The position numbers were made by a program, and so were the translations under genes. A DNA stretch of 51,217 nucleotides from an uncultured Candidatus Saccharibacteria bacterium (GTDB lineage: Bacteria; Patescibacteriota; Minisyncoccia; Phycocordibacterales; CAIZLB01), in the NCBI GenBank assembly GCA_964520545.1, contig CAZFOD010000001.1, positions 4,752-55,968 on the forward strand. The letters are read 5' to 3'. The notes under the pieces were generated by a model. That model had not been told where the DNA came from. It made no database searches and saw only the letters and a program-made list of their open reading frames with translations. Below, in pieces: positions 172 to 51,217 of the stretch. The number at the start of each line of letters is the position of its first letter. Positions within the stretch are counted from its first letter, which is position 1.

Positions 172-732
172 CTACCGGTTGAACGGTTGAGGTGGGCGTC
201 GCGGGGCAGCGTGATATAGCGGCCCCGCATTCCTTTCATAGTCGCCGAGATCTCCTTCGAGAACAAGGTTTCCCGACTGTGAAAATGACGCTCGTCCTCC
301 GCGTGGAGCCATGCGGTAATCCGCATATACTCCGCCCGCTCCGGGTGGGTGATTCATGCCCTCGAAAGGTGCACGATATTGTGGCCGAGGAGCGAATGCT
401 CCACCGCCACTTCCACCGCGATATGAGGTGCCCTTCAGGGTCACCTCTACGCTGGCACCAGGCAGTTGCTGCAAGATCCGTTGCCGGACCTCCTCGGGAG
501 TGCCGCCGCGACGCTTTTCAGCTTCCGCGACTTCGGCGAAGTCGCTTTGCGTATAGTCGCCGCCCGAGATGTGGATGTGATAGCTATCGCACCTGGTCTG
601 AGGCACCGATGCACGATTGCAGTTTTCCACCATGCGGCCTTGATAGACGCGACCACAATGGCCACGACGGTTGTTGCAGCACGCTGAAGCGAGAAGCGCC
701 GCGAAGAGCGCTAGGATGACTTGGAGTTTCAT
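172..732 (-). CDS. hypothetical exported/lipoprotein-like protein, GC-rich
   Basis: 186 aa; hydrophobic N-terminus ending LLASAC; Gly/Pro-rich; own promoter (TTGACT-N16-TATAAT at 844-817) and terminator. Confidence 0.6.
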   Translation of the reverse strand: MKLQVILALFAALLASACCNNRRGHCGRVYQGRMVENCNRASVPQTRCDSYHIHISGGDYTQSDFAEVAEAEKRRGGTPEEVRQRILQQLPGASVEVTLKGTSYRGGSGGGAFAPRPQYRAPFEGMNHPPGAGGVYADYRMAPRGGRASFSQSGNLVLEGDLGDYERNAGPLYHAAPRRPPQPFNR

Positions 733-4038: not shown

Positions 4039-4518
4039 ATGCGTGTACTAGCAATTGATCCTGGATACGAAAGACTTGGAATTGCCGTTATTGATAAAAC
4101 GACAACAAACAAAGATGATCTTGTGTATTCAGACTGTCTCCGAACTTCTCCGAAAGAATCATTTGAACAAAGACTTTTAGTAATTGGTAATGAAATAGAA
4201 AAAGTTATTGAAGAATATTCACCAAAAGCTTTAGCGATTGAAAATCTTTTTTTAAGTAACAATCAAAAAACAGCAATGCGTGTTGCAGAAGTTCGTGGTG
4301 CAATATTGTATCTTGCTGCAAAAAACGGACTAGTGATAAGTGAAATGACACCTCTACAAATCAAACTTGCAGTAACTGGTGATGGAAAAAGTAGCAAAGA
4401 TCAAATGATGAAAATGGTTAACCTTCTTATAAAAACAACCAAGAAAGATATGCTTGATGACGAGTATGATGCCATCGCTGCAGGTATAGCGTTCTTTGCT
4501 CTTAATAAGAAATTTTAA
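4039..4518 (+). CDS. ruvC: crossover junction endonuclease RuvC
   Basis: AIDPGY, AIENLF, EVRGAI, DDEYDAIA. Confidence 0.93.
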   Translation: MRVLAIDPGYERLGIAVIDKTTTNKDDLVYSDCLRTSPKESFEQRLLVIGNEIEKVIEEYSPKALAIENLFLSNNQKTAMRVAEVRGAILYLAAKNGLVISEMTPLQIKLAVTGDGKSSKDQMMKMVNLLIKTTKKDMLDDEYDAIAAGIAFFALNKKF

Positions 4519-49428: not shown

Positions 49429-49431
49429 TAC

Positions 49432-49475
49432 AAAAAAGGGCCCCGGATCGTCATGCGACGGTCCGGGGCTTTTTT
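49432..49475. terminator. bidirectional terminator
   Basis: A6-gg-GCCCCGGATCGTC-atgc-GACGGTCCGGGGC-T6. Confidence 0.85.
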
Positions 49476-49869
49476 GATTGCAACGCGGCCAGACAAGATT
49501 GGCAAGGCAGCGTCGAATGCTATTTTGGTGAGAAGTCCCATTCCGCCACATGCTGAGCAGGGGGCGAATGACTTTCCACTGATGACAAACGCGATTGGTC
49601 CTTTGACCTTCGCAATACTAACTTATTCAGTCGCCCATGGTGTGGGTTCCTTTCGGTTTGGTTTCTTTACTGCACAACTTCCTTCCAGAATGCGTCGGCT
49701 AAACTTTGGTGCTTGGCACCGCCCTCTAGCCCTATGATCAGGCTTGAGGGCGGTGCTTTCGCTCCCGCAGATCAGTCGATCATAGACACCTCCTGGTTGG
49801 TTGTTGTTTCGGTCCTAGTCATTTCAAGGAAAGCTGGTTTTGACACCGACTCTCCATAACTGACCTCTG
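49432..49869 (-). ncRNA. candidate 440-nt structured RNA carrying two 3-codon minigenes
   Basis: bounded by promoter 49904-49876 and terminator 49432-49475; 5' hairpin; 11-bp stem 49716-49756; no credible long ORF. Confidence 0.55.
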
Positions 49870-49875
49870 CAGGCT

Positions 49876-49904
49876 ATGATAGCAGATATCGGCTATTCTG
49901 TCAA
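49876..49904 (-). promoter_or_regulatory. sigma70 promoter TTGACA-N17-TATCAT
   Basis: tgtcaa 49899-49904 and atgata 49876-49881 on the + strand. Confidence 0.7.
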
Positions 49905-50142
49905 GCAAAAGTGACAATACCTGTAATATAGCTATATTTATCAACGTAAAAACCTTATTTATGGGCTTCTAGTGCACCATCAGCACGTTTTTTAGCATTT
50001 ACGTAATATTTTTATTACAAAACTATCTTTATTTATGTCAATTAACAGTCGGTTAAGTTGAACACGTTTTACATACTGCATCGGTTTTAGCCCTTAATAT
50101 AAGGGTTTCTCTGTTTTACGAAATAGAAAATGTCAAAACGGC

Positions 50143-50170
50143 TTGACAAAATATTGAAAATGCATATAAT
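50143..50170 (+). promoter_or_regulatory. consensus sigma70 promoter TTGACA-N16-TATAAT
   Basis: both hexamers are perfect. Confidence 0.75.
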
Positions 50171-50290: not shown

Positions 50291-50338
50291 ATGACCTACA
50301 CCGTCAACAAGCGCGGCGAAGTTATCGTCCTGAAATAG
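50291..50338 (+). CDS. 15-aa micro-ORF MTYTVNKRGEVIVLK
   Basis: SD GAAAGGAG 5 nt upstream of ATG, after an A/C-rich unstructured tract. Confidence 0.45.
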   Translation: MTYTVNKRGEVIVLK

Positions 50339-50341
50339 GAC

Positions 50342-50486
50342 ACTCTGCGAAAGCAGAGTTTGGAAGTCTGTCATGATCCTTTGGCAAAGATCGTGAACGT
50401 CACAGGTAACATGTGAGCCAAGAGGAAGCAGAGCCTCCGAGTTAAAGCACTCAGACAAAAGCTTGGTGGGTACACAAGTATCCACC
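50342..50486 (+). ncRNA. multibranch structured RNA domain upstream of the ribozyme
   Basis: ACTCTGC-GAAA-GCAGAGT; GTCTG/CAGAC closing four hairpins; GGTGGGTAC-acaa-GTATCCACC. Confidence 0.5.
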
Positions 50487-50488
50487 TC

Positions 50489-50536
50489 CTGTCCACGAAT
50501 GTAATTCGTGCTGATGAGTCCAAAAGGACGAAACAG
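50489..50536 (+). ncRNA. type III hammerhead ribozyme
   Basis: CTGTC|CACGAA-tgtaa-TTCGTG-CTGATGA-GTCC-aaaa-GGAC-GAAA-CAG: full core, three stems, GUC cleavage triplet (cut after 50493). Confidence 0.92.
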
Positions 50537-50538
50537 AA

Positions 50539-50658
50539 ATCTTTACATGGTTCCCTTCACCTCATCCCGCGCTTCGTTTTTACGTCGCGGACATCAACCA
50601 CTCAAATAATATAGTGGTCCCCGCAGGCGCTGGGTGAGGTGAAGGGAATATGGAAGAT
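50539..50658 (+). ncRNA. rod-like structured RNA, Y-RNA candidate or anti-SD leader
   Basis: 17-bp stem 50551-50567/50632-50648 with nested GCGCTT/AGGCGC, GCGG/CCGC, ACCACT/AGTGGT; upstream of TROVE gene. Confidence 0.5.
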
Positions 50659-50699
50659 CTGATCTTTAAATACTTATCTCATAAATATCAAAAAGTTTC

Positions 50700-50767
50700 G
50701 GTTCGGTTTCGGCAGATAGATATTGCTTTAATTAATGAAGGCAATGTTTATCTGTCGAAATTGAATC
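50700..50767 (+). other. 30-bp uninterrupted RNA hairpin with 7 G.U pairs
   Basis: 50700-50729 pairs with 50738-50767, 8-nt loop. Confidence 0.8.
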
Positions 50768-50844
50768 CAATTCTTGGAGCTACCGCCATTGCGGAGTGTG
50801 GTGGGTCACTTCTGATCCATCCTTCAAACCTACAGAGAGAACCT

Positions 50845-51217
50845 ATGAAAAACCTTCAAACGATTCTTGCCGCAGGCCGCAGTGTTCGCGTTAGCAGCAG
50901 TCAGGTGACGAACCGCGCTGGGGCACCAGCGTTCCGCCGCTCCTTACAAGAGCAGGTGGTCCAGGTCCTCTCGACCGGCACGCTCAGTGACACTTTCTAC
51001 GCCACGCGAGAGGAACTCGCGAAGGAGGCGTTGCAAGTGCTCATCGAAGCGCGCGACACGATTCCGTCTTTCTTGGCGCGCGCCCTTGTGTGGGCACGCG
51101 AAGAAGGGCTGATGAAGTCGCTGCCGGTCTTGGGACTTGTCGTGTTGTCGTCCGCGGGGGCTCGCACACGCGAGCTCTTCGAGAACGCCTTTCCGCGCGT
51201 GGTGAAAACTCCTGATG
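50845..51217 (+). CDS. TROVE-domain (Ro60/Rsr-like) RNA-binding protein, 3'-truncated; missed by ORF track
   Basis: MKNLQ...TNRAGAPAF...LSTGTLSDTFYAT...PSFLARALVWAREEGLMKSLP...FPRVVKTPD matches the TROVE N-terminus pattern; alternative in-frame ATG at 50650. Confidence 0.8.
   Translation, partial: MKNLQTILAAGRSVRVSSSQVTNRAGAPAFRRSLQEQVVQVLSTGTLSDTFYATREELAKEALQVLIEARDTIPSFLARALVWAREEGLMKSLPVLGLVVLSSAGARTRELFENAFPRVVKTPD

Follow-up and report, generated by a model that had tools for sequence, protein, structure and literature searches.

Two three-codon reading frames with the same last amino acid in a predicted structured RNA of Patescibacteria

The window analysed here is a stretch of 51,217 nucleotides (nt) from an uncultured Candidatus Saccharibacteria bacterium (contig CAZFOD010000001.1). 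Near its end, on the minus strand, lies a predicted structured RNA with two units, each made up of an A/C-rich tract, a Shine-Dalgarno (SD)-like box and a frame of three codons, Met-Ile-Asp in the first unit and Met-Gly-Asp in the second. Comparison with other genomes shows both frames conserved, with a common final amino acid, and the RNA probably works by being read by ribosomes. Both units, with their common layout of A/C-rich tract, SD and Met-X-Asp-UGA, had been pointed out in an initial annotation of this DNA, and they are present letter for letter as described there. The interpretation offered at the time, namely a ribosome-docking or sponge RNA, minigenes that sequester peptidyl-tRNA, or a sensor of release factor 2 (RF2), is partly supported.

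If they are indeed read, these frames belong with the shortest genes on which selection acts, and to our knowledge this would be the first case of several tiny frames in one RNA co-evolving in their last codon. It would also imply a principle of regulation whose signal is the identity of one tRNA, or of one C-terminal residue. Members of the RNA family are widespread among the Patescibacteria, which form a large share of bacterial diversity with hardly any cultured strains and little-known regulation, and the family comes with a dedicated TrmB-like regulator, often also with Ro60 and hammerhead RNAs. We found no paper on the family in the literature on Ro60 and Y RNAs, TROVE, anti-Shine-Dalgarno sequences and hammerheads; no search under other words was made.

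Conservation of the frames and of their last codon

Homologous loci were fetched with a TROVE alignment, which gave 37 genome loci and 31 metagenome loci (68 in total). Membership of many of these loci in the RNA family was judged by eye, and all structures reported below are thermodynamic predictions made without a covariation model. The unit layout recurs in 23 curated loci and also in 13 of 15 new loci that were chosen only by TrmB similarity, where an SD-led open reading frame (ORF) of 3-5 codons lies beside the TrmB-like gene. The elements are syntenic with those of the window: a promoter, an SD, a frame of about three codons (ORF1), a strong hairpin, a second SD-led short frame (ORF2) and a terminator by the trmB-like gene. 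Near-consensus promoters are present in 11 of 12 homologous loci, and in six of those ORF1 lies 25-33 nt past the predicted start. The SD-like box stands 3-11 nt ahead of the start codon in most family members, ORF1 has three codons in 17 of the 23 curated loci, and the second mini-ORF follows 89-165 nt past the first in 10 of 12 homologous RNAs. Asp is the commonest last codon (21) among the 85 SD-led three-codon ORFs of the 68 TROVE loci, followed by Gly (13) and Leu (10).

The initial annotation had suggested related genomes as the place to look for conserved units, and there start, frame and stop are indeed kept; the stop codon and the Asp codon vary. ORF1 reads MID, MSD, MED, MFD, MGD, MCD, MSD, MFD and MND in the homologues, which retain the ATG, the frame and a stop that may be TGA, TAG or TAA, with Asp encoded by GAC or GAT. 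The same exchanges are found close by, in contigs of related strains from other samples: GAC TGA is replaced by GAC TAG in X4 and X7, and by GAT TAG in X9 (a loose end). In X4, mini-ORF 2 is intact although there are indels on both flanks, and the preceding GAAAGGAA is kept although flanking bases change (49655, 49656, 49661, 49665). Exchange of the stop codon and synonymous exchange of the Asp codon with the frame kept are the mark of a decoded frame and not of an RNA motif. They also speak against RF2 sensing, given that all three stop codons end ORF1 among homologues and TAG does so in near relatives.

At the DNA level, one locus, L013, aligns to the spacer when the whole spacer serves as the query (nhmmer, E 1.3e-20), and the best-aligned stretch is exactly the SD plus mini-ORF 1, which there reads ATG AGC GAC TGA. 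Nothing was found when the RNA alone was compared with the 37 genome loci by nhmmer, and BLAST of the window RNA against 40 relatives gave no matches.

Readthrough of the first UGA, which the initial annotation had considered on the grounds that the frame stays open for about 35 codons, does not fit the comparison. We count 34 open codons in the window, and this openness is not conserved elsewhere. The downstream frame consists of the hairpin sequence, which is completely different between loci, and the distance from ORF1 to ORF2 is not a multiple of three in most of them. A readthrough protein was dropped as a candidate: no peptide is common to the frames that follow ORF1 in the window, L013, L025 and L027.

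The last residue is equal in both frames at 17 of the 23 distinct loci of the curated list, which was made by hand and partly chosen after matches had been seen; permutation gave a mean of 3.9 matches, and none of 200000 permutations reached 17. Among the non-Asp curated loci, 10 of 14 are matched, and the matched residues of the curated set fall into eight classes (D, G, H, I, K, L, Q, W). Examples are MGH/MDH, MHG/MGGG, MGDK/MKNVGDK, MGW/MQW, MGW/MMGGW and MGW/MHW; further matched pairs are MNGI/MDGI, MGGL/MNGL, MGGGQ/MQGGQ and MCGG/MFGG. An unsupervised count of SD-mini-ORF pairs 80-260 nt apart found 11 matches in 25 pairs outside long ORFs, against an expectation of 0.096 per pair; in the control, 6 of 42 pairs overlapping long ORFs match. 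The independent sample of 15 loci contains six clear pairs, four of which match (MNGL/MHGL, MGGV/MNGV, MDD/MGD and MDD/MND), adding the class V.

The identity of the last residue is far from constant. A tree of 37 TrmB-like proteins requires at least 17 changes of it, and in the clade of L016, whose TrmB proteins are 65-74% identical, the last residues are W, L, L, I, V, G, G, A and A; all five two-ORF loci of this clade are matched. Within one locus the two frames frequently end on different stop codons, which argues that what is constrained is the amino acid or tRNA specified by the last sense codon and not an RNA motif common to both frames.

Could the window hold no more than two unrelated short frames that arose by chance in a GC-rich spacer? 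The motif ATGNNNGACTGA occurs twice in the window compared with an expected 0.52, and 10 of 100 shuffled sequences reach two, so that the count in the window alone is not significant. The comparative data decide the matter; they contradict chance, which we regard as having next to no claim. Given the retention of start, frame and stop and the agreement in the last residue, the two three-codon frames are most likely decoded, and from the sequence comparisons we hold this with good, though not full, confidence.

The predicted RNA in the window

The spacer that holds the RNA lies between the TrmB-like and Ro60/TROVE genes, is about 1.2-1.4 kb long and is poor in ORFs. Table 1 lists its features. 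The GC content is 0.49-0.54 within the predicted RNA and 0.28-0.38 in the flanks. Folding of 49430-49875 gave -167 kcal/mol (z -5.3), and none of 100 shuffled sequences folded as well. The initial annotation had placed both units in one RNA. This is a well-founded prediction: a predicted promoter and a predicted terminator bracket the two units. A look for RNA runs containing the stretch found none. The terminator-like hairpin is missing from the list produced by a simple terminator scan.

The hairpin 3' of ORF1 has a folding energy of -38.2 kcal/mol (z -5.2; 0 of 200 shuffles as good). A stable hairpin is found 5-16 nt past ORF1 in all six loci folded (z -3.5 to -6.8); those of L025, L027, L013, L053 and L024 (z -6.8 to -3.5) are of unrelated sequence. 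In the window, L025, L013 and L027, a helix is predicted to close over the SD, which pairs with the strand past the hairpin. The 5' hairpin of the window RNA contains an earlier AUG, and ORF1 is thus not at the first AUG there. Two substitutions in this hairpin in related contigs, at 49820 and 49813, turn a U-G pair into U-A and a U-A pair into U-G, as worked out by hand, and pairing is kept.

Rfam, searched at the gathering thresholds and at E values up to 10, holds no family that matches the minus-strand RNA except for a weak terminator-like match. RNase P RNA and tmRNA are located elsewhere in the genome. A hammerhead core within the minus-strand RNA was considered and rejected by eye, as the core letters misfit.

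Table 1. Features of the two units, the predicted RNA and the adjoining genes (window positions)
Feature	Position	Strand	Evidence and remarks
SD-like box 1, AACAACAACCAACC-AGGAGG-TGTCT-ATG	AGGAGG 49794-49789	-	Sequence reading; 5 nt spacer to ATG
A/C-rich tract, then AGGAGG	49789..49810	-	Sequence reading
Mini-ORF 1, ATG ATC GAC TGA (Met-Ile-Asp-stop)	49772..49783	-	Sequence and comparison with homologues
Unit 2, AAACCAAACC (A/C-rich tract)-GAAAGGAA-CCCACACC-ATG GGC GAC TGA		-	8 nt spacer to ATG
SD-like GAAAGGAA ahead of mini-ORF 2	49647..49654	-	Sequence; kept in contig X4
Mini-ORF 2, ATG GGC GAC TGA (Met-Gly-Asp-stop)	49627..49638	-	Sequence; unchanged in contig X4
Predicted sigma-70-type promoter, TTGACA-17 nt-TG-TATCAT	49876..49904	-	11/12 hexamer matches, TG before -10
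Predicted stand-alone structured RNA, about 438 nt, ends predicted	49432..49869	-	Promoter, terminator, fold
5' hairpin	49811..49865	-	Minimum free energy fold
Strong hairpin 3' of mini-ORF 1, 11-bp GC stem and inner stem-loop	49716..49756	-	Fold
Intrinsic-terminator-like GC hairpin and T-run	49434..49475	-	-24.1 kcal/mol; common to the end of the convergent trmB-like gene
TrmB-like regulator gene, 250 aa	48676..49428	+	Pfam TrmB 1.2e-15
Ro60/TROVE-vWA gene, runs off the window	50650..51217	+	Pfam; frequent, non-obligatory neighbour

Possible modes of action

The observations at hand are the sequence itself, the predicted promoter and terminator, the stable hairpins, the conservation pattern and the linkage to the TrmB-like gene. 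From these, and by analogy with known leaders, we tentatively favour a regulatory RNA that is read by ribosomes, a free-standing transcript with two sensors for the same tRNA or residue; this seems to us plausible, if still short of probable. A ribosome would start at each AUG and read Met-X-Asp. Its dwell time at the last sense codon and the stop would be set by one tRNA species, here tRNA-Asp. While it dwelt there, neither the strong hairpin downstream nor the helix over the SD region would close, and the state of the two would set the fold of the RNA and hence its fate or activity. The output may act in trans or on the TrmB-like gene.

The closest precedent is the vmlR leader of Bacillus subtilis, for which PMC9226507 describes stalling on a three-codon upstream ORF, uORF(MIN), with a single-stranded SD by a stem-loop, remodelling the leader; the variants MDN, MDK and MRK are reported to work as well. 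The window RNA resembles this leader, as described there, in having an SD-led Met-X-X-stop frame with variable residues beside a stem-loop, and in the principle proposed here, that ribosome dwell on a tiny frame would decide RNA structure. It differs, as far as that description goes, in having no regulated gene past the terminator in cis, in carrying a pair of frames that end on one and the same residue, and in being a stand-alone gene linked to a TrmB-like regulator, with carriers that partly lack an anti-SD. Leader-peptide attenuators of the trpL type and dual-function small RNAs likewise place a short frame in a regulatory RNA and use tRNA-dependent reading as the signal. Here, in contrast, there are two frames of only 3-7 codons each, in which the last codon alone is informative, and no amino-acid-biosynthesis gene or other target lies in cis.

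Several points weigh against a ribosome-read regulatory RNA. That the units are transcribed together and translated, that ribosomes dwell on them and remodel the RNA, and that this has an output are all steps that we infer from sequence. No regulated gene lies downstream of the RNA in cis; the terminator faces the 3' end of the convergent trmB-like gene, and the orientation of the RNA relative to trmB and TROVE varies among loci. The SD-to-stop stretches are no more accessible than the rest, with unpaired probabilities of 0.38 and 0.42 against an average of 0.40 for the RNA. Apart from the partly after-the-fact choice of the curated loci, six of their 23 pairs are unmatched (L013, L059, L052, L055, L030 and L086), as are two of the six independent pairs (MGDAK/MGESR and MGC/MGL), and seven loci of the independent sample have a single mini-ORF. 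The fast turnover of the sensed residue is not explained. Pairing between the hairpin loop and the start-codon region gave no support either: an energy test over 38 frames yielded a mean z of -0.27, with 3 of 38 below -2. By eye, the loop (49740-49732 in the window) is complementary to the start-codon region over 7-9 bp in four close loci, the window, L013, L025 and L027. A pseudoknot of loop and start-codon region was dropped as a general feature, being absent in L028, L053 and L059 and null in the energy test.

The most awkward point concerns the SD itself. As the initial annotation had remarked, strong SDs are rare before the ordinary genes: in the window's genome (G000) they stand at 30 of 623 first-ATG starts and at 33 of 623 control positions within genes, and the TROVE and trmB genes are without one. 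The 3' end of the G000 16S rRNA (contig C6, 11800-13312; L114) is GGAAUCAUUCAAUUU, which does not contain CCUCC, and the 16S tail in the genome of L027 (GGAAUAUUUCAAGG; L115) likewise lacks it. Since the 16S rRNA is without CCUCC and the genes show no SD enrichment, AGGAGG is not a classical SD here, and ribosome docking through it, as initially suggested, is doubtful in this organism. The 16S tail is canonical in the genomes of L012, L084 and L081 and a variant in that of L015; the RNA family therefore occurs in genomes with and without CCUCC. The puzzle is that a perfect Shine-Dalgarno box is retained where the 16S rRNA has lost the matching sequence, and its retention, although the cell's own ribosome cannot pair with it, lacks an explanation. 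The locus may have been transferred recently, the box may act within the RNA itself (in four loci the SD is predicted to pair past the hairpin), or it may be read by something other than the producer's ribosome.

The shared last codon is also a property of lambda bar, whose two minigenes have the same last sense codon. An RNA acting in this way would be a tRNA trap: repeated translation of the minigenes, ending in drop-off of fMet-X-Asp-tRNA, would tie up one tRNA species and slow the genes that use its codon, and the TrmB-like protein would control production of the RNA. Consistent with this, strong SD-like boxes precede ultra-short ORFs, the two ORFs of a locus finish on a codon of the same tRNA, and G000 has a single tRNA-Asp gene. 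The likeness extends to the toxic minigenes treated in PMC2490762, which as reported there combine a strong ribosome-binding site with a frame of few codons; their action is governed by the tRNA that reads the final sense codon, inhibition is strongest with the shortest of them, and mainly genes with the codon of the sequestered tRNA are affected. Early drop-off of peptidyl-tRNA is described as frequent in PMC10192219.

We nevertheless consider a tRNA trap unlikely. A gene for Pth is present in G000, so that trapping would need very high expression, and the organism's own ribosome has no anti-SD. A long structured RNA with hairpins is unnecessary for a sink, single-ORF units and unmatched pairs exist, and GAC does not belong to a rare codon class here (GAC 3331, GAT 6328 in G000). 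Unlike lambda bar, the loci are cellular and not of phage (a scan of viral contigs with the TROVE profile gave two distant loci only), the frames lie within structured RNAs of 320-550 nt with their own predicted promoter and terminator, and the last codon differs between lineages. A more ambitious version makes the RNA a switchable, tRNA-specific brake on translation, a cellular counterpart of lambda bar. One to three ribosome-loaded minigenes with the same last codon class would turn a chosen tRNA (Asp here; Trp, Gly, Leu, Ile, Val, Lys, His or Gln in other lineages) into short peptidyl-tRNA, with the TrmB-like protein in control of the switch. Because the producer's own ribosomes lack an anti-SD while the RNA keeps a perfect AGGAGG, the brake might, in its boldest form, be aimed at host or competitor ribosomes with a canonical anti-SD. 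We regard such a brake as distinctly improbable.

Instead of the tRNA, the product could be what matters. The peptides fMet-X-Asp (MGW, MGGL and others elsewhere) might, for example, be ligands of the C-terminal domain of the TrmB-like protein, the two frames being two copies of one signal defined by its C-terminus. The RNA lies strictly beside the TrmB-like gene, with or without TROVE, and the modelled regulator has a fold with a TrmB-type ligand domain. The match between frames holds at the level of the amino acid, as with CAG and CAA in L012, and several pairs share their last two or three residues (GDK, GGQ, GI, GL, GV, GW). Minimal units also exist; L147 consists of an SD, four codons and a terminator. 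Co-variation with the regulator, however, was not reproduced. New loci did not bear out two of the leading candidate columns, K219 and position 222. Y144 is present at all 13 Asp loci, yet four non-Asp loci have it too, and there are at most five independent pairs (p at least 0.125). In the L016 clade the last residue shifts between W, L, I, V, G and A without a change in the candidate columns. The penultimate residue is free in Asp-type loci, and the long conserved RNA structure is left unexplained. A pairing of peptide and regulator thus appears rather unlikely to us.

Finally, the RNA might not be translated at all but act through its structure, for instance as a Ro60-bound partner similar to Y RNAs or as a mimic of mRNA. 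It is highly structured, it adjoins Ro60 in the window and in many loci, its SD region is predicted to pair past the hairpin, and AGGAGG is kept though the 16S rRNA of the producer is without CCUCC. Bacterial Y RNAs (YrlA, Yrn1) are encoded beside rsr/Ro60 according to PMC4201824, which gives a Ro60-binding motif GNCGAAN0-1G, and the window RNA is like them, on that account, in being a structured, non-coding-looking RNA encoded no more than about 1 kb from a Ro60 orthologue. It also contains GGACCGA, which resembles the Ro60-contacted GGUCCGA of the same source. The motif GNCGAAN0-1G itself, in contrast, is missing in 11 of 12 family RNAs and is present in one that is not from the window; GGNCCGA-like sequences occur in 2 of 12, including the window. 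ARAGORN found no tRNA-like gene at the RNA, and Rfam gave no Y RNA or tRNA-like match even at E values up to 10. The window RNA is about 3-4 times longer than a Y RNA. By these tests (the missing motif, the lack of a tRNA-like domain and of an Rfam match, and the occurrence of the family in three genomes where TROVE was not found) the RNA is not a Y RNA. More generally, a structural motif would not allow free exchange of TGA, TAG and TAA or of GAC and GAT with the frame kept, and it leaves the equal last amino acids of two frames unaccounted for. An untranslated structural RNA is accordingly a very doubtful alternative to one that is read by ribosomes.

Neighbouring genes and further RNA motifs

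The model of the TrmB-like protein (pLDDT 90.5) comprises a winged helix-turn-helix, a long helix and a phospholipase-D-like C-terminal domain, and its fold matches TrmBL2/TrmB. The gene adjoins the RNA in all RNA-bearing loci examined, and among 140 ORFs of 15 such loci analysed with Pfam only TrmB and TROVE + vWA_Ro60 recur. In three RNA-bearing genomes (97-98% complete) TROVE was not found, and the RNA there lies beside the trmB-like gene, which makes the TrmB-like regulator and not Ro60 the constant partner of the RNA. A candidate operator for this regulator is an inverted repeat, TGTCAA-N6-8-TTGACA, noticed by eye at about 50120-50165 of the window, where it overlaps the -35 element of a plus-strand promoter; a repeat of this type is found at the equivalent position in L017, L019, L021, L077 and L026. 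The promoter (50143-50170, plus strand) is a perfect TTGACA-16-TATAAT. Behind it and upstream of a hammerhead-like motif lies an SD-led 15-codon frame, MTYTVNKRGEVIVLK (50291-50338, plus strand), whose counterpart at this place in L013, MTYIVNPDGTIEVIRR, carries synonymous changes; the other loci yielded no such frame.

The window RNA ends about 800-1000 nt from the TROVE gene. The 614-codon TROVE ORF probably starts at Met66 (50845), where homologues begin and the GC content rises, and the true spacer would then measure about 1.4 kb. The TROVE gene has a GC content of 57-65% compared with 42% for the genome, and neither TROVE nor the RNA was found in any of 40 relatives. From its composition and distribution, the Ro60 locus of G000 looks horizontally acquired. 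In L013, an integrase gene and a NYN-domain gene are found near the Ro60 locus.

The genome has three type III hammerhead-like motifs and no others, all of them in the Ro60 locus; they score 43.7, 42.7 and 38.9 bits (gathering score, 48.5). They are located at 50486-50539 of the window and at 4373-4426 and 4855-4908 of L011 (L011 coordinate = window coordinate minus 49248), all on the plus strand. One stands before the TROVE gene, and the other two bracket about 430 nt behind it. A gene for RtcB was not found in the genome. A crude regular expression picked up hammerhead-core patterns near TROVE in about 20 other loci. Past TROVE and beyond the window, L011 3250-5040 is a GC-rich region of about 1.8 kb with no Pfam-matching ORF. 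It contains repeats, two copies each of CCUUAGU..CAUUUUUGUC-like and CUGAGG.UACUUCGAAC-like elements, as well as a degenerate hammerhead-like core, and by these features it probably encodes several further RNA genes.

One more short frame was noticed in L105 (about 330-600, minus strand), where an SD-led three-codon frame (Met-Ala-Arg) lies shortly upstream of a gene, possibly by coincidence. The N-terminus of that gene's product looks like that of a peptidyl-tRNA hydrolase.

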